From the IMG/VR virus record IMGVR_UViG_2693429700_000016: a DNA stretch of 6,193 bases; one strand, written 5' to 3'. The position numbers were made by a program, and so were the translations under genes. The notes beneath the pieces were generated by a model that was given only the letters and a program-made list of their open reading frames with translations, made no database searches and was not told the origin of the DNA. Shown in pieces: positions 1-6,193 of this stretch. The stretch's first letter is position 1. Each line of letters begins with the position of its first letter. This DNA is from a virus. Its lineage: Duplodnaviria > Heunggongvirae > Uroviricota > Caudoviricetes.

Positions 1-79
1 CATATTCATCCTGACTTTCCAGAACCATACGAATCGCCCGCTGACGGACTTCGGGGGAAAAACGAGTATTTTTAGTCAT
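1..79 (-). CDS. IS3-family transposase OrfA, N-terminal fragment (continues past window edge)
   Basis: Own translation of minus strand from ATG 79-77 gives MTKNTRFSPEVRQRAIRMVLESQDEY with no stop to position 1. Candidate ribosome-binding site AGAGG upstream (revcomp of ~87-91). Confidence 0.8.
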   Translation of the reverse strand, partial: MTKNTRFSPEVRQRAIRMVLESQDEY

Positions 80-108
80 CCTGTTTACCTCTTTCTCAGG
101 GAGTTTAG

Positions 109-133
109 TCTCCAGGATTTCCGGGGCGGTTCA
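109..133 (-). repeat. IS terminal inverted repeat (IRL-like)
   Basis: TGAACCGCCCCGG..TCCTGGAGA shares a 13-nt identical terminus and the TCCTGGAGA block with the opposite-polarity copy at 6070-6094. Confidence 0.75.
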
Positions 134-140
134 GGCTGGT

Positions 141-572
141 GTGATTCTGCTGGGCTTTATGCGTCGGGAGTTAAATCTGTCTAACTCATCTGTGCTTGGG
201 GCCTGTCAGAAACTCCAGGAGGCTGTTGGCTTACCGAATCTGGCACCGCGCTATGCCATTGATGCTCCTGCTGACGCGCCTGATGGCTCAAGCCGCCCCA
301 CGCTGTCACTGAGTGCACTGCTGAAGCAGTATGGTATCTGCCTGACAGCTAATCAGGCATATCACCAGATGGCGAAGCTGGGGATCGTTGAACAACGCGA
401 ACGATACAGCCGTACCGCGATTAACAACATCAAAAAATTCTGGTCGCTGACGGCGAAAGGCTGCATGTTCGGCAAGAACATCACCAGTCCTGCAAATCCG
501 CGCGAGACGCAGCCGCATTTCTTCGAATCCCGATTCCCTGAGCTGTTAAAGCTGCTCGATACCGTTCATTGA
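141..572 (+). CDS. Hypothetical phage protein, probably 5'-truncated by the IS insertion (possibly the C-terminal part of a larger regulator; function not recognised)
   Basis: ORF with GTG at 141 (next ATG at 159), only 8 nt from the IS terminus. In-frame upstream sequence is IS DNA. Stop TGA 570-572 overlaps the start region of the next gene, suggesting coupling. GC-rich coding composition. Confidence 0.5.
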   Translation: MILLGFMRRELNLSNSSVLGACQKLQEAVGLPNLAPRYAIDAPADAPDGSSRPTLSLSALLKQYGICLTANQAYHQMAKLGIVEQRERYSRTAINNIKKFWSLTAKGCMFGKNITSPANPRETQPHFFESRFPELLKLLDTVH

Positions 573-573
573 G

Positions 574-1569
574 GTGACCGTGAGAGCACTACTGACCCCT
601 GAAATTGCCCCGCGTATGGGGATCGTATTGTTCAGGCCAGGTTCAGAGCTGATGCCCCTGTTTATGCAGGGGCGTGTCCTGCTGGAGCCTGAGCCGGAAC
701 GTTACTCATCTTTCGCCAGTGGTGCCGTTCCGGCGGCATCACAACCGCTGGCGGATGATCCTGCCGTTCGGGCCGTGTTCCGCAATGAGGCAGTGATCCG
801 TCGTGCTGGTGGCGTGGAATGTCTTGAAAGCTGGTTACTTCGTGAAAAAGGCTGCCAGTGGCCTCATTCCGACTGGCACAGCGAGAACATGACCACAATG
901 CGACACGCTCCGGGCGCAATCCGTCTGTGCTGGCACTGCGATAACCAGCTGCGCGATCAGTTCACGGAATGGCTGGAATCAATGGCAACGGATAACTGTG
1001 CCCGCTGGGTGTTGTCTGTTGTGCGTCGGGATCTCGGTTTTGATGACAGTCACGTTGTGACAATGCCGGAACTGTGCTGGTGGTTGATTCGTAATGATCT
1101 GGCGGATGCCTTACCGGAAAGTGCAGCCCGTAAGGCACTGAGATTACCGAAGCCTGTTGTGCCATCTGTCACCCGGGAAAGTGACCTTGTGCCTTCGGTT
1201 CCTGCCACCAGCATCATCCAGGATAAAGCGAAAAAGGTGCTGGCGCTGAAAGTGGATCCGGAGTCGCCGGAGTCTTTTATGTTACGCCCAAAACGTCGCC
1301 GCTGGGTTAATGAAAAGTACACGCGCTGGGTTAAGACGCAACCGTGTGCATGTTGTGGAAAGCCTGCTGATGATCCCCACCACCTGATAGGCCACGGTCA
1401 GGGTGGAATGGGTACAAAAGCGCATGATCTCTTTGTGTTGCCTTTGTGCAGAAAGCATCACGACGAGCTGCATGCGGATACCGTGGCATTTGAAGAGAAG
1501 TATGGCTCCCAGCTGGAGCTGATATTTCGTTTTATCGATCGTGCGCTGGCAATTGGCGTGCTGGCCTGA
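574..1569 (+). CDS. DUF968-like prophage protein with C-terminal HNH-like Cys/His motif
   Basis: 331-aa ORF. C-terminus has C-x2-C-G ... D-P-H-H ... P-L-C-R-K-H-H-x-E-L-H spacing typical of HNH/zinc-finger nucleases. Position immediately upstream of Q is typical of DUF968 genes (ydfU-like) in E. coli prophages. Start is GTG at 574 or GTG at 580 (GAGG at 571-574). Confidence 0.7.
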   Translation: MTVRALLTPEIAPRMGIVLFRPGSELMPLFMQGRVLLEPEPERYSSFASGAVPAASQPLADDPAVRAVFRNEAVIRRAGGVECLESWLLREKGCQWPHSDWHSENMTTMRHAPGAIRLCWHCDNQLRDQFTEWLESMATDNCARWVLSVVRRDLGFDDSHVVTMPELCWWLIRNDLADALPESAARKALRLPKPVVPSVTRESDLVPSVPATSIIQDKAKKVLALKVDPESPESFMLRPKRRRWVNEKYTRWVKTQPCACCGKPADDPHHLIGHGQGGMGTKAHDLFVLPLCRKHHDELHADTVAFEEKYGSQLELIFRFIDRALAIGVLA

Positions 1570-1587
1570 TTTTTGTGGAGTAAGTTG

Positions 1588-1932
1588 ATGCGTGATATGT
1601 ATGAAGTATTGGACCGCTGGGGAGCATGGGCTGCAGCAGACAACAGTGGTGTGGACTGGCAGCCGGTAGCAGCAGGCTTCAAGGGGCTTTTACCTCATGG
1701 CAAAAAGTCACGGATTCAGTGTGATGATGACGAAGGCATTATGATAGACAGTTGTGTGGCTCGGTTGAGAAGGTATAAACCAGAGGAATATGAGCTCATC
1801 ATAGCCCACTTTGTTATTGGTATCTCATTACGCACTATTGCCAAAAAGAGAAGGTGCTCTGATGGCACTATTAGGAAGGAGTTGCAAACCGCAATCGGTT
1901 TTATAGAGGGGGTTGTAAGTATACTTGTGTAA
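1588..1932 (+). CDS. Q: Late-gene antitermination protein Q (short quuD-like family)
   Basis: N-terminus MRDMYEVLDRWGAWAA...AAGFKGLL...CDDDEG...CSDG resembles DLP12 QuuD-type Q proteins from memory. GGAG at 1577-1580 precedes ATG 1588; the ORF track's TTG at 1573 is less likely. Stop TAA 1930-1932. Confidence 0.8.
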   Translation: MRDMYEVLDRWGAWAAADNSGVDWQPVAAGFKGLLPHGKKSRIQCDDDEGIMIDSCVARLRRYKPEEYELIIAHFVIGISLRTIAKKRRCSDGTIRKELQTAIGFIEGVVSILV

Positions 1933-1940
1933 AATAATAA

Positions 1941-1959
1941 AAGGCGGTAGTACCGCCTT
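1941..1959. terminator. Perfect hairpin (AAGGCGGTA / TACCGCCTT) between convergent Q and cassette; likely intrinsic terminator for the minus-strand cassette
   Basis: Inverted repeat 1941-1949 / 1951-1959. On the minus strand it is followed by a U-rich tract (revcomp of 1929-1940 = TTTTATTATTTT). The plus-strand downstream tract is not U-rich. Overlaps the stop codon (1958-1960) of the last cassette gene. Confidence 0.55.
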
Positions 1960-2572
1960 AATGATCGAATCGTTGTATGTTTTCATGGAATCTACAAAAG
2001 TGAATAGATATTTTGAATAGTAAAATGTAGAAACCAACTTGACTTAAAGTTATGGCTTTGCATTTATCATTCAAGAGTTTTTGTAATTCTTCCGTTGGTA
2101 ATTGGTATACATCATCAAGAAAAACGATGCATTCTTCTAAGTTGTCTGATTCAGGAAGATAAAAAATATTAGTAATTAACTGCTTCCTTATAGCATCAAT
2201 TTTGCTATCTATTGAAGTCTTAGAAACTCCGTTGGAGAGAAGAATAGCTTCGAACTTAGATAAACTTACTAACGGAGCAAAGACTGCACGCATTGGCACA
2301 TCACGATTATTACTTGTATCTATATCGCAACTGTTGCTTAATATAATTCCTCGTGTTTTTTTAGTCCCTTTAATTGAATATACTGTAAGCTCCTTAAATA
2401 TATCTCCCTGAAGTGCAGCATTTTTCAGATCATCATGATAATTGGTAAGGTAGTAGTTAGTGTTTTCAGGGAAATCTCTAAGTGCATTTATTAGCCCTTC
2501 TTTTTGAGGAGCTGTTAAATAATATGGGATTTGATCTTTGAATTTCTCGATATCAAAAATGTTATTACTCAT
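1958..2572 (-). CDS. Cassette gene C: hypothetical protein (~204 aa), no recognisable motif
   Basis: Long ORF in strongly AT-rich DNA. ATG at 2572-2570 (alternative GTG at 2575-2573) lies directly after the TAA stop (2578-2576) of gene B, suggesting translational coupling. Ends at the terminator hairpin. Confidence 0.7.
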   Translation of the reverse strand: MSNNIFDIEKFKDQIPYYLTAPQKEGLINALRDFPENTNYYLTNYHDDLKNAALQGDIFKELTVYSIKGTKKTRGIILSNSCDIDTSNNRDVPMRAVFAPLVSLSKFEAILLSNGVSKTSIDSKIDAIRKQLITNIFYLPESDNLEECIVFLDDVYQLPTEELQKLLNDKCKAITLSQVGFYILLFKISIHFCRFHENIQRFDH

Positions 2573-2575
2573 CAC

Positions 2576-2920
2576 TTAATCCAAGTATAAATCCCACAGT
2601 GAAGCATGAACGACTTTATTTATTTCACTGCCTAAAGACACCTGGTTTGTTGATAATTTTTCATAAAAGTTTGTCATCGAGACTGCAAGTCTTTGATCAA
2701 CTGAGATTGTGCTCCCTGCTTTATATGTTTGTGTGATGGAATGAACTGAATCGGTAGTTGAAGACTTATACTCCAAAGCGTGATTTTTGACGATTAAACT
2801 TTGTTGAGGACCATGCTGTTGATTTTGGGCAATGTCTGTTAATGCTGTTATATGCAGACCATATAAAACCAAAGTTAATACTTGAAGTTGAGCTCGATAA
2901 ACATGATGAGACGGATACAT
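2576..2920 (-). CDS. Cassette gene B: small hypothetical protein (114 aa) with hydrophobic N-proximal segment
   Basis: ATG at 2920-2918 preceded on the minus strand by GGTGGT about 7 nt upstream (revcomp of 2921-2935 = AAATGGTGGTATGAT). Residues ~10-30 (AQLQVLTLVLYGLHITALTDIA) are hydrophobic. Stop abuts the start of gene C. Confidence 0.6.
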   Translation of the reverse strand: MYPSHHVYRAQLQVLTLVLYGLHITALTDIAQNQQHGPQQSLIVKNHALEYKSSTTDSVHSITQTYKAGSTISVDQRLAVSMTNFYEKLSTNQVSLGSEINKVVHASLWDLYLD

Positions 2921-2935
2921 ATCATACCACCATTT

Positions 2936-3685
2936 CTATTTGTAGGATGGTTCTAGTTCTTGAATTGTTGACTCTTTAAGGCAACTAAAGAAAGCTAATT
3001 TATTACAGGAGTGAAGATCATCAAGAATTTTTTTGGGTTCGTTTTTAAACTTATCTATTTCATCAGTATTAGTGATTTGCCTAATACTGTCTATGTCTAG
3101 GATTAGTCCTTTTTTATTAAATTCTCCATTATCTGACATGACTAAAGCATGAGATAATATTTGAATTATATTTAGAAATGCGCCTTCATTTTTATCGATT
3201 CTGATATTGATCGGATAATTAGACATAGACTCGCCAGCCATATTTAAGCTGACGTTTAGCTTATCAAATAAATTAGAATCGTCTTCTTTTGGGAAAAAAT
3301 CTACATACTTTAATGAGTAGCGGATGATGTTGTCATTTAAATTTAATTTGTTAAGCTCATTTAATACATGAATGATTTTTTCTCTAAAATGACTCCACCC
3401 TTGATATTTGGTGCTGGTGGATACAACAACACCATGGTCACTTAGTCCAATATAGTACCCTTCGATTTCGAGGCGACTGACAACTGCGTAATGTAATTGT
3501 TCATCTCCCTCACGAACATTTTTAGGTATTTGACTGGGTGGTAAACTAATTACTGGTTTTGTACAACCTAGAGCGTGAAAAAGAAACCCTGGAACTATTT
3601 CCGATATTTGTGTTTCTTTAGAAAAACGCATTTCGAAAGCAGCTTCGATTACTGGTTGTTTTGATAGAGATGTTGGAATGAGCAT
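2936..3685 (-). CDS. Cassette gene A: hypothetical protein (249 aa); N-terminal P-V-I-E-A-A-F-E-M-R-F motif resembles TIGR04255-type proteins of unknown function (recognition from memory, unverified)
   Basis: 750-nt ORF, AT-rich codon usage, ATG at 3685-3683, stop TAG 2938-2936 is 15 nt upstream of gene B start. The motif PVIEAAFEMRF plus later IIRYSLKYVDFF and GLILDIDSI blocks fit my memory of that family. Confidence 0.7.
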   Translation of the reverse strand: MLIPTSLSKQPVIEAAFEMRFSKETQISEIVPGFLFHALGCTKPVISLPPSQIPKNVREGDEQLHYAVVSRLEIEGYYIGLSDHGVVVSTSTKYQGWSHFREKIIHVLNELNKLNLNDNIIRYSLKYVDFFPKEDDSNLFDKLNVSLNMAGESMSNYPINIRIDKNEGAFLNIIQILSHALVMSDNGEFNKKGLILDIDSIRQITNTDEIDKFKNEPKKILDDLHSCNKLAFFSCLKESTIQELEPSYK

Positions 3686-3912
3686 TTAAAACCCATAGTA
3701 TGTTTTATGAGCTGATTGGATTTTGAGCATAGCTACCGCACGAATCTTCGAGGAAGATCCAAACATGTGCCTAATGTCGCATCATGCTCAAGGCGGCATA
3801 AATTTTGTTTACTGAGTATAAGATTAACAACCATTAACTTCCATCAAAAATGCTAACGCGTACGCAAAAACTATTGTATCGTGTTAAGAGTGGTCACTTC
3901 GCCACACAGCTT
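3686..3912. promoter_or_regulatory. Divergent control region: expected site of the cassette promoter (minus) and possibly the phage late promoter/qut (plus); exact elements not resolved
   Basis: Non-coding, compositionally intermediate stretch between the cassette start and the lysis leader. Only weak sigma70-like hexamers found by eye, e.g. TTAACA 3824-3829 with AAAAAT 3846-3851. Positional inference only. Confidence 0.3.
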
Positions 3913-3942
3913 AAACCCGCCGTCGAGCGGGTTTGTCGTTTC
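3913..3942 (+). terminator. Hairpin AAACCCGC-CGTCGA-GCGGGTTT followed by GTCGTTTCT: candidate tR'-like intrinsic terminator or late-leader structure upstream of S
   Basis: 8-bp GC-rich stem (3913-3920 / 3927-3934) with 6-nt loop and U-rich tail on the plus strand. Flanking GGTCACTTCG (3892-3901) recalls the lambda pR'-tR' leader from memory. Confidence 0.4.
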
Positions 3943-4085
3943 TGGACCCGGCTATTTGTTGAGCCTGGTCTATACCGCAGTTATCCATTGGCTCGGCCTC
4001 TTTTACGTTTCCGCTTCTGATTTGCGGTACATGATGTTCCCTCAATTTGCACCTCCTGTATTGGCGAGGTGAGAGATAACTACAA

Positions 4086-4412
4086 ATGCCTCATAACCCA
4101 AATACCTGGCTGGAGTTGGTCCAGAGCTGGTGGCGTGGAGACACACCGCTGGGCGCAGTGATTATGTCGATTGTTATGGCTGGTTTACGTATTGCCTATT
4201 TTGGCGGTGGTGGCGGCTGGAAGCGAAAAACACTCGAAATTCTACTCTGTGGTGCTCTGACGCTGACTTTTGCATCCGCTCTTGAGTATGTCGGATGGCC
4301 TAAATCACTATCTGTTGCCATTGGTGGTGGGGTGGGGCTGATCGGTGTCGATGCTATTCGTGGGGCTGCAATGCGAGTAATCGGTAACAAATTTGGTGGC
4401 TCTAAGGAGTAA
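4086..4412 (+). CDS. S: Holin (class I, lambda S-like three-TMD architecture, but a divergent allele)
   Basis: 108 aa. Three hydrophobic segments (about residues 22-39, 49-69, 75-91). Shares the LR..Y.GG...K and IG.D.I pattern with lambda S from memory. Immediately upstream of R; stop TAA 4410-4412. Confidence 0.8.
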   Translation: MPHNPNTWLELVQSWWRGDTPLGAVIMSIVMAGLRIAYFGGGGGWKRKTLEILLCGALTLTFASALEYVGWPKSLSVAIGGGVGLIGVDAIRGAAMRVIGNKFGGSKE

Positions 4413-4415
4413 TTT

Positions 4416-4892
4416 ATGCAGGTACTAAATTCCCAGCGTAAAGCTTTCCTCGATATGGTGGCTTGGTCAGAAGGAACGGATAACGGACGACAACCGACAC
4501 GTAACCACGGTTATGACGTTATTGTTGGTGGTGAACTCTTCACTGATTACTCCGATCACCCTCGCAAACTTGTCACGCTAAACCCGAAACTCAAGTCAAC
4601 AGCCGCCGGACGTTACCAGCTTCTTTCACGCTGGTGGGATGCTTACCGTAAACAGCTTGGCCTGAAAGATTTTTCTCCAGAAAGCCAGGACGCTGTAGCT
4701 CTGCAGCAGATTAAAGAGTGTGGCGCTTTACCGATGATTGATCGCGGTGATATTCGTCAGGCAATTGACCGTTGCAGCAATATCTGGGCTTCACTGCCGG
4801 GTGCTGGTTATGGTCAGTTCGAGCATAAGGCTGACAGCCTGATTGCAAAATTCAAAGAAGCAGGCGGAACGGTCAGAGAGATTGAGGTATGA
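4416..4892 (+). CDS. R: Endolysin R (lambda-type lytic transglycosylase)
   Basis: 158 aa. Sequence [81 protein letters not shown]... is near-identical to lambda R as I remember it. AAGGAG at 4404-4409. Confidence 0.95.
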
Positions 4893-5350
4893 GCAGAGTA
4901 ACCGCGATTATCTCCGCTCTGGTTATCTGCATCATCGTCTGCCTGTCATGGGCTGTTAATCATTACCGCGATAACGCCATTACCTACAAAGCCCAGCGCG
5001 ACAAAAATGCCAGAGAACTGAAGCTGGCGAACTCGACAATTACTGACATGCAGGTGCGCCAGCGTGATGTTGCTGCGCTCGATGCAAAATACACGAAGGA
5101 GTTAGCTGATGCGAAAGCTGAAAATGATGCTCTGCGTGATGATGTTGCCGCTGGTCGTCGTCGGTTGCACATCAAAGCAGTCTGTCAGTCAGTGCGTGAA
5201 GCCACCACCGCCTCCGGCGTGGATAATGCAGCCTCCCCCCGACTGGCAGACACCGCTGAACGGGATTATTTCACCCTCAGAGAGAGGCTGATCACTATGC
5301 AAAAACAACTGGAAGGAACCCAGAAGTATATTAATGAGCAGTGCAGATAG
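4889..5350 (+). CDS. Rz: Spanin inner-membrane subunit Rz (i-spanin)
   Basis: 153 aa. ATGA start/stop overlap with R. N-terminal TM segment ([16 protein letters not shown]) then coiled-coil-like region; near-identical to lambda Rz from memory. Confidence 0.95.
5109..5291 (+). CDS. Rz1: Spanin outer-membrane lipoprotein Rz1 (o-spanin), embedded in the +1 frame of Rz
   Basis: 60 aa. Lipobox VVGC and proline-rich [13 protein letters not shown]. Fully nested inside Rz as in lambda. Confidence 0.9.
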
Positions 5351-5381: not shown

Positions 5382-5675
5382 TTATTGTGAGCAATACACA
5401 CGCGCTTCCAGCGGAGTATAAATGCCTAAAGTAATAAAACCGAGCAATCCATTTACGAATGTTTGCTGGGTTTCTGTTTTAACAACATTTTCTGCGCCGC
5501 CACAAATTTTGGCTGCATCAACAGTTTTCTCCTGTCCAATTCCCGAAACGAAGAAATGATGGGTGATGGTTTCCTTTGGTGTTACTGCTGTCGGTTTGTT
5601 TCCAACAGTAAACGTCTGTTGAGCACATCCTGTAATAAGCATTGCCAGAGCGGCAGAAAACAACATTTTTTTCAT
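5382..5675 (-). CDS. bor: Bor-family outer-membrane lipoprotein (lambda bor-like)
   Basis: Minus-strand ORF; start chosen at internal ATG 5675-5673 (MKKMLFSAALAMLITGCAQQTFTV...) with AGGA about 8 nt upstream. Lipobox ITGC. Near-identical to lambda Bor from memory. The ORF-track N-terminal extension (5676-5723) is probably not translated. Confidence 0.9.
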   Translation of the reverse strand: MKKMLFSAALAMLITGCAQQTFTVGNKPTAVTPKETITHHFFVSGIGQEKTVDAAKICGGAENVVKTETQQTFVNGLLGFITLGIYTPLEARVYCSQ

Positions 5676-5858
5676 CTTATTATCCTGCATTGTTAAAAAC
5701 GGCAGAATCCTATGTGACAACAATTAAACGATAGTTAAATGGATTGATGAAATTTAAAACTATATAGGTGTACGGTCAGACTATTGGAGGTAGTCAGGAT
5801 TTGAATGTCAGTCTGTTGTCGGCATTCTGGCAATGCAATTTGGATAAAGCGGGGATTA

Positions 5859-5978: not shown

Positions 5979-6069
5979 GTTGAACCTCCTTAATTAATGT
6001 TATTCGAGTGAGGAAGGCATTCTGTCCTTCTATAGTGTCCAGTAAATCAAACAGGAAACTTGTCCAACG

Positions 6070-6094
6070 TGAACCGCCCCGGGTTTCCTGGAGA
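6070..6094 (+). repeat. IS terminal inverted repeat (IRR-like)
   Basis: TGAACCGCCCCGGGTTTCCTGGAGA; partner of 109-133. Confidence 0.75.
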
Positions 6095-6111
6095 GTGTTT
6101 TATCTGTGAAC

Positions 6112-6193
6112 TCAGGCTGCCAGATCATCGTTTCCGATGGAAGCATAATAAGCTTTTTCTGCTTCTGCCGGAGGAGTATGGCCCAGCCTTCCC
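6112..6193 (-). CDS. IS3-family transposase OrfB, C-terminal fragment (partial)
   Basis: Minus-strand frame gives ...GRLGHTPPAEAEKAYYASIGNDDLAA then stop at 6114-6112, about 42 nt inside the IS terminus. The TPPAEAEKAYY tail looks like IS3-family integrase C-termini. Frame choice is my judgement. Confidence 0.5.
   Translation of the reverse strand, partial: GRLGHTPPAEAEKAYYASIGNDDLAA

Follow-up and report, generated by a model that had tools for sequence, protein, structure and literature searches.

Among the toxins of small toxin-antitoxin (TA) and abortive infection modules, MazF, Kid, ToxN, AbiQ and CptN are ribonucleases (RNases), CcdB being the exception, and in the type III modules (ToxIN, AbiQ, CptIN) the antitoxin consists of tandem RNA repeats. 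Many TA modules at accessory sites of phages have turned out to be defence systems, and CmdTAC is an anti-phage system borne by prophages or islands. The effector GajC of type II Gabija, a validated anti-phage system, contains a split MazF-like domain, the barrel of which is interrupted by a helical insertion (PMC13069673), and the portal-adjacent, cos-proximal old/tin locus of P2 is a hotspot of anti-phage systems, one of which, 'hp+hp+hp' (Rst_3HP), has three genes and protects against phage P1 (Rousset et al., PMC9122126). The subject of this text is a three-gene cassette in IMG/VR record IMGVR_UViG_2693429700_000016, a fragment of a lambdoid prophage that was analysed over its full length of 6,193 nt (the window). 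The genes are named A, B and C in the order of their transcription from the minus strand, and they are located between the genes of the antiterminator Q and the holin. With about even confidence, the cassette can be read as a mobile tripartite TA-like prophage module for abortive infection or superinfection defence, in which C would be the effector, B its neutraliser or adaptor, and A the sensor.

A, B and C are real genes under purifying selection, and they form one strictly conserved, horizontally mobile operon. Chance open reading frames (ORFs) are not an explanation, because stop codons are frequent at 33% GC, all three products belong to PHROG families (E = about 1e-59 to 1e-132), the ratios of nonsynonymous to synonymous substitution (dN/dS) are low among Klebsiella-type copies (A 0.03-0.06, B 0.09-0.16, C 0.03-0.11; rough values, as dS is saturated), and the order of the operon is retained across phyla. 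Between the stop of A and the start of B there are 15 nt, in which GGTGG stands 8 nt ahead of the ATG of B, and the start codon of C follows immediately after the TAA of B (2576-2578), RefSeq having chosen the ATG at 2572 (204 aa). The terminator hairpin (1959-1941) overlaps the stop codon of C and is 9 nt away from the stop of the convergent Q gene. This is the arrangement given in the preliminary description of the window, which had reported three co-oriented, tightly spaced minus-strand genes with a terminator of their own. It had also regarded the insert as foreign, and this is supported by the low GC of the 1.9-kb cassette (0.333 overall, against 0.494 in the remainder of the window; 0.28-0.37 across 1900-3500, against 0.49-0.60 in the flanks) and by its absence from sister prophages, defined as those with the same KilA-N/DUF968/Q...holin backbone. 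The DNA upstream of A that travels with the cassette presumably holds its promoter and 5' untranslated region; by eye, TTGTTA-N17-CAAAAT at 3830-3802 is the best sigma-70-like match on the minus strand, though a weak one (8/12).

Of 5,426 complete E. coli genomes, 92 (about 1.7%) have the cassette with an identity of at least 99%, including clinical carbapenemase-producing lineages, and the prophages that bear it differ downstream of the cassette. It occurs also in Klebsiella, Salmonella/Citrobacter, Yersinia and Pseudomonas phages. Homologues of A with 46-65% identity in Yersinia, Serratia and Klebsiella stand in an A-B-C set of the same kind, with Q on one side and the lysis genes on the other, and in Klebsiella prophages the cassette is found in the nin region as well. 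C is unusually well conserved, as identities of 45-50% to it are reached even in Allochromatium, Trinickia, Candidatus Symbiobacter and a magnetotactic deltaproteobacterium, and none of the 469 matches to C has a Pfam domain. Around the C homologues, proteins of about 249 and about 113 aa and C stand in a row in very different surroundings, and gene order and sizes are retained, with gaps or overlaps of 0-15 nt, in Yersinia, Serratia, Klebsiella, Allochromatium, Trinickia and Candidatus Symbiobacter. When 100,044 species genomes were scanned with the A profile, 33 loci were obtained in Ignavibacteria, Bacteroidota, Desulfobacterota and Alpha-, Beta- and Gammaproteobacteria, 25 of which have A, B and C co-linear. 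In IMG/VR, 48 loci were obtained with C; upstream sequence is included in 47 of these, and each of the 47 has A together with a B-type ORF. The GC of the cassette is 8-23 points below that of the flanks in 12/12 loci. The coherent three-gene unit that had been proposed from the window is thus a strictly conserved one. Frameshifted copies of C stand beside B in four loci (L029, L040, L049 and L073 of the present analysis), and no intact C without B was found among the loci seen, a pattern that would fit a TA relation of the two.

The surroundings of the chromosomal copies comprise PemK/MazE and RecC, glycosyltransferases, two integrases in a locus that adjoins a filamentous prophage, reverse transcriptases (RTs) of group II introns or of retron type, ParE and BrnT toxins, and Wadjet genes. 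The 143 nearest neighbour ORFs of about 60 loci are heterogeneous and for the most part prophage genes; the commonest matches are CI-type repressors, Q, DUF968 and integrases, with isolated matches to AbiEii, a defence-type RT, methyltransferases, PDC-S05/S48 and CapH. Two sequenced phage isolates, the Pseudomonas phages Dobby and VW-6S, carry the full operon; a megablast search of the INPHARED phages with the cassette gave no match, these Pseudomonas phages being found by tblastn only. In the P2-like phage Dobby (L101, NC_048109.1) the cassette abuts the portal gene, and in VW-6S (L103, MF975720.1) it is located directly downstream of cI on the same strand, the place that the exclusion genes rexAB have relative to cI in lambda. 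The deposited annotation of Dobby looks wrong in this region (1090-2176), as A is annotated only from 1483 (123 aa) and the ORF that matches the A profile starts at 1090. In VW-6S (3939-5001), what is annotated as a 46-aa 'integrase' is a part of B, and the annotated start of A is 114 nt downstream of the one found here.

The structure model of C matches the toxin fold of MazF, Kid and CcdB, an SH3-like barrel, and in the model a barrel core of this type carries a helical insertion. No toxin motif had been recognised in the preliminary description, and for sequence and profile comparisons this holds: C has no Pfam match at E<=1, no NCBIfam match and no PADLOC match, PemK_toxin (PF02452) is not among the 18 families matched at E<=10 by 57 C homologues, and sequence and profile searches of the Protein Data Bank (PDB) gave chance matches and no MazF. 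What the modelled fold changes is that the earlier idea of an effector now has a concrete basis. A kinship of C and MazF/Kid at the sequence level was dropped, the probability being 2% in an hhalign comparison with an alignment of six MazF/Kid sequences. The alignment of C homologues has the invariant motifs QGD, SNSCD and, at the C-terminus, HFCRFHE..R; by eye, K, R, Q, L or F precedes the invariant G75, and 'FAP' is followed by a hydrophobic position. If C is toxic, as its model suggests, it is by analogy most likely an endoribonuclease and less likely a gyrase-type poison, since the known toxins named at the outset are all RNases except CcdB.

Gene A encodes a member of the NCBIfam family TIGR04255 (score of 96.2 bits, the cutoff being 30; E=2.6e-27; residues 7-244 are matched to positions 2-251 of the 252 in the model), and RefSeq likewise has it as 'TIGR04255 family protein'. 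The function of this family is unknown, and the preliminary description, which had tentatively placed A in a family of unknown function, was right in this respect. For A a TBP/AdoMetDC-like fold with two alpha/beta repeats is predicted; PDB sequence and profile searches gave chance matches only. A profile search found 2,036 representatives of 50%-identity clusters at E<=1e-3, and the best 150 of these are nearly all standalone proteins of 245-255 aa. Residues conserved throughout the family include E18, R20, Y94, W97, R122, S124, K126, Y127 and D199, and several of the conserved residues may line one face of the sheet, to judge from their alternation along the predicted strands rather than from coordinates.

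In eight of the genome loci, A is present without the canonical B-C pair (L028, L032, L033, L034, L047, L050, L051 and L052), two of which are uninformative as to its partners (L047 is at a contig edge, L052 has only a fragment of A). L033 and L050 encode a divergent C-like protein (E=6.5e-9 against the C profile). In two further loci (L028:6752-7618 and L032:8117-8983), A is followed by a 169-aa protein and a 118-aa HEPN-like protein, the latter with a Pfam HEPN match just below the gathering threshold (E=7.8e-4) and a match to HEPN_IX of PADLOC (E=6.9e-5), and in the remaining two (L034:6731-7782 and L051:6680-7770) by a protein of 185-211 aa with a hydrophobic N-terminus and an uncharacterised protein of 151-165 aa. 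In L032, an IS-type (insertion sequence) transposase is located between a truncated A and the downstream pair. As A is conserved and the pairs that follow it are exchangeable, two of them having folds of RNase-toxin type, it fits a constant sensor or regulator that is coupled to swappable effectors.

B evolves fast; it belongs to phrog_5728 (E=4e-59), has no Pfam or NCBIfam domain, and finds only its own cluster in a word-index search. All homologues have the same architecture, which is an N-terminal hydrophobic stretch, a variable linker and, as the C-terminal region, some 40 aa that are acidic and conserved and have the consensus F..v..FY..LS..Q..LG.EFE.vL..NLWDLY at the end of the chain, B of the window ending in LWDLYLD. 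These features were taken from an alignment of eight loci, and the hydrophobic stretch and the C-terminal motif recur in at least 30 homologues. The protein had been called membrane-like, and this is borne out weakly, as the stretch (residues about 12-30) is moderately hydrophobic, its Kyte-Doolittle mean over 17 residues being a borderline 1.2-2.1.

The site of the cassette is a variable accessory site at which related phages carry recognised or candidate defence genes. Sister prophages have, at the same site and likewise antisense, a TIR-TM protein (PADLOC PDLC03016, E=1.7e-57), an HNH-type protein that resembles the candidate PDC-M68A and CBASS-type endonuclease effectors (E=7.5e-27), a 339-aa protein without known function (with a methyltransferase downstream in that prophage), or a set of three genes after Q (L018:2319-4477, E. 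coli SH19PTE6, NZ_CP073768.1; 365, 140 and 211 aa, all 'hypothetical'), and in DLP12-type prophages there is a porin gene in the Q-holin interval. The set of L018 was ruled out as a homologue of the cassette, being unrelated to A and C by hhalign; its 211-aa protein has a weak match to the PADLOC candidate PDC-S54 (E=7e-6), and the set may be another uncharacterised cassette.

An accessory hotspot had been claimed in the preliminary description, and this stands, which is less likely for the two details given with it, namely an antisense orientation to late transcription and the position of stx, which is downstream of pR'/tR'. When the regions upstream of the holin were aligned (the window, an identical copy of the cassette in strain ACN002, and four sister prophages with different cargo), the common backbone was found to resume at about 3850, and many E. 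coli genomes match only from 3846 on. A promoter-like site and a conserved terminator hairpin on the plus strand (Table 1) together resemble a late promoter pR' followed by tR' after a short 6S-like leader (3824-3935). If the late promoter is indeed at 3824-3851, the cassette and about 165 bp of upstream DNA are probably located between Q and this promoter, outside the late operon and convergent with Q, and thus neither antisense to the late transcript nor at the stx position. The weak candidate promoter of the cassette overlaps the plus-strand site face to face, and the two may interfere with each other if both are real. The Q allele of the window diverges over most of the gene from the allele found in sister prophages, so that Q and the cassette may have been acquired together, and Q (PF06530) adjoins the cassette also in prophages of Yersinia, Serratia and Klebsiella.

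Table 1. Features of the 6,193-nt window in the order of their positions
Feature	Position	Strand	Remarks
KilA-N gene, truncated	141-572	+	143 aa, compared with 269 aa in sister prophages
DUF968 gene	574-1569	+	
Antiterminator Q gene	1573-1932	+	PF06530; convergent with the cassette
Intrinsic terminator of the cassette	1941-1959	-	GC-rich hairpin AAGGCGGTACTACCGCCTT followed by TTATTATTTT (T-run); terminator scan
Gene C	1958-2575	-	205 aa from GTG 2575, or 204 aa from ATG 2572
Gene B	2576-2920	-	114 aa, ATG start
Gene A	2936-3685	-	249 aa, ATG start; constant first gene of the operon
Cassette-specific upstream region	3686-3850	-	about 165 bp travelling with the cassette; alignment with sister prophages
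Promoter-like site TTAACA-N16-AAAAAT	3824-3851	+	scan; straddles the junction at about 3850, with the -35 element in cassette-side DNA
Conserved terminator hairpin	3912-3935	+	scan; inside a block kept in five prophages with different cargo
Lambda-family holin gene	4086-4412	+	
GH24 lysozyme gene	4416-4892	+	
Rz gene with embedded Rz1 gene	4889-5350 (Rz1 5109-5291)	+	
bor/iss serum-resistance lipoprotein gene	5382-5723	-	second antisense moron, downstream of Rz/Rz1

Some further features of the window and of related prophages stand apart from the cassette. The GC falls also at the bor/iss gene, to 0.36-0.43. The two ends of the window (1-135 and 6065-6193) match opposite ends of an IS3-family element (IS1203/IS629-like, about 1.31 kb), and the window is thus a 5.9-kb prophage fragment bracketed by IS copies; no complete E. 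coli genome contains it as a whole, the best coverage being 80%. Klebsiella prophages have another antisense cargo gene, which encodes a 595-aa protein with DUF7380 and EMARD_N (L005 and L007, 12737-14524), is disrupted by an IS5-type element in L008 and has its place taken by the gene of a DUF5677 protein in L006, and this locus looks like a second variable accessory site of these prophages.

In the proposed tripartite module, C would be an effector toxin of the MazF/Kid/CcdB fold, and B would neutralise or adapt it by docking its acidic, Trp-containing LWDLY tail on C, a contact that is postulated by analogy with the C-terminal tails by which MazE, Kis and CcdA bind their toxins. A, with its predicted TBP-like fold and conserved polar residues, would be the sensing or regulatory partner that holds or releases the B-C pair upon a cue from a phage or upon a falling supply of labile B, and C, once freed, would arrest the cell. 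The toxicity of C, the roles of A and B, the trigger and any anti-phage phenotype are what we infer from the whole of these data; an anti-phage activity is suggested by the position of the cassette and by analogy. The constancy of A next to exchangeable downstream pairs is what one would expect of an invariable sensor that is combined with different toxin modules, and it favours the TA-like module, and defence as its purpose is favoured by the sites at which the cassette is found, which are that of the TIR-TM and HNH/PDC-M68A-like genes of sister prophages, that next to cI, and the P2 hotspot, and by the TA and Wadjet genes beside chromosomal copies. The split MazF-like domain of GajC is a precedent for an effector of this kind. 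A hint comes also from DefensePredictor, in Table S3 of which the presence of a TIGR04255 protein directly next to a gene has a mean SHAP (Shapley additive explanations) value of +1.62 towards 'defensive' (n=9).

Several points weigh against such a module. By Pfam and NCBIfam, B has none of the DNA-binding domains that are usual in type II antitoxins (ribbon-helix-helix (RHH), AbrB, helix-turn-helix, Phd-YefM), and its hydrophobic N-terminus, with basic residues before and acidic residues after it, could be an export signal or membrane anchor, unlike a cytoplasmic antitoxin. In C, the catalytic residues R29 and T52 of MazF seem to have no conserved counterparts in the alignments as read by eye, and the conserved polar residues N80, C82, D83, N88, K187, H191, C193, R194, E197 and R201 are largely outside the MazF core, so that the chemistry of C may differ from that of MazF. 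A promoter scan upstream of A gave no strong minus-strand promoter, and with its 33% GC the cassette may be silenced by H-NS in E. coli. Only a handful of the 143 neighbour ORFs match defence models, in a survey that had no control set.

The alternative that survives best, unlikely as it is, is a plain addiction or stabilisation TA module that retains the prophage or island and has no dedicated anti-phage role. A protein with a toxin-type fold and a small upstream partner is what such a module would have, mobile elements of many kinds carry the cassette, which also has other TA pairs as neighbours, and a frameshifted C is tolerated while B is kept. However, three genes, the first of which is strictly conserved and encodes 250 aa, exceed the needs of addiction, the sites of the cassette are ones that hold bona fide defence genes in sister phages, and many TA modules at such sites proved to be defence systems.

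It is rather improbable that the cassette acts at the envelope, in superinfection exclusion or lysogenic conversion, with B exported or anchored in the membrane, A and C acting there to block DNA entry or to alter the surface, and C being no toxin. Every B homologue has a hydrophobic N-terminal stretch of about 15-17 aa with a few basic residues before it and acidic ones after it, the cassette of VW-6S occupies the place of the rexAB-type exclusion genes, and the other morons of the window are envelope proteins (Bor/Iss). The segment of B, however, is borderline in hydrophobicity, short and rich in Gly, Ser and Thr, neither a signal peptide nor a transmembrane segment is seen in A or C, C models as a cytoplasmic toxin-type fold, and the alternative partners of A include the HEPN-like protein, a cytoplasmic RNase type. 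Very improbable is a function for the phage itself, as counter-defence or as a regulator of the lysis-lysogeny or late-gene switch, which would explain the adjacency to Q of the same family throughout four enterobacterial genera and to cI in VW-6S as well as the Q allele that seems to travel with the cassette, but not the operons outside prophages (near RecC, glycosyltransferases, integrases, group II introns and Wadjet), the copies elsewhere in prophages (in the nin region of Klebsiella prophages, beside the portal gene of Dobby) or the sister prophages that work with unrelated cargo at the same site.

A wider version of the tripartite TA-like module is offered only tentatively. TIGR04255 would here mark tripartite immune or TA modules that span phyla, in which a TBP-fold sensor A and a tail-anchored adaptor B control interchangeable toxins (the MazF/CcdB-fold C, the HEPN-like protein, or others), temperate phages would spread these modules by way of accessory hotspots, and C would be a new branch of MazF/CcdB proteins with a Cys/His active or metal site of its own. 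If the cassette is a defence or abortive infection system, this would be the first function for TIGR04255, with about 2,000 clusters at 50% identity across bacteria, the MazF/CcdB toxin superfamily would gain a divergent and larger branch, a further case of a constant sensor with swappable effectors would be added, and the site after Q and before the late promoter would be a defence hotspot of lambdoid prophages. As the cassette has spread in E. coli, clinical lineages included, and in Klebsiella, Salmonella/Citrobacter, Yersinia and Pseudomonas phages, it could also affect the host range in phage therapy.

For the time being, the cassette is regarded as undescribed as a system. No family of PADLOC-DB 2.0.0, the models of which date to 2023, matches A, B or C at E<=1, so that no known or candidate defence model of that collection applies, as had been anticipated in the preliminary description. 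A Pfam scan of the three proteins found nothing and an NCBIfam scan only TIGR04255 for A; public records name the proteins 'TIGR04255 family protein' or 'hypothetical protein' only, and neither 'TIGR04255' nor the three RefSeq accessions occur in the paper texts searched, the accessions being absent also from the DefensePredictor supplements.

Among the known systems, the type III RNA-antitoxin model was rejected, as no repeat families beyond chance 12-13-mers are present in 1900-4100 and there is no Rfam match; in place of a repeat RNA, the cassette has two protein partners. An identity with Rst_3HP of E. coli E1114 was rejected likewise: this was the only published system of three hypothetical proteins that was found, and both occupy an accessory hotspot of prophages with three genes in which no domains are recognisable, but the proteins of Rst_3HP have about 335, 350 and 225 aa and are unlike A, B and C by inspection of the published sequences. 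With MazEF, Kis-Kid and CcdAB, the modelled C shares the fold and no detectable sequence similarity; it is twice the size of their toxins and has an N-terminal helical extension, an inserted helix pair and the invariant C-terminal HFCRFHE, B lacks an AbrB or RHH domain, and the cassette has A as a third, strictly linked gene. The toxin-antitoxin-chaperone (TAC) systems HigBA-SecB and CmdTAC/PD-T4-9 likewise have an operon of three small genes, with a toxin and a labile partner that has a critical C-terminal tail, but the third component of the cassette is not a SecB-like chaperone. To GajC, finally, the likeness is in the MazF-like barrel with a helical insertion as modelled for C, and the difference is in the partners, since GajC is combined with the helicase GajB and the cassette has no helicase or ATPase and combines its putative toxin with the unrelated proteins A and B.

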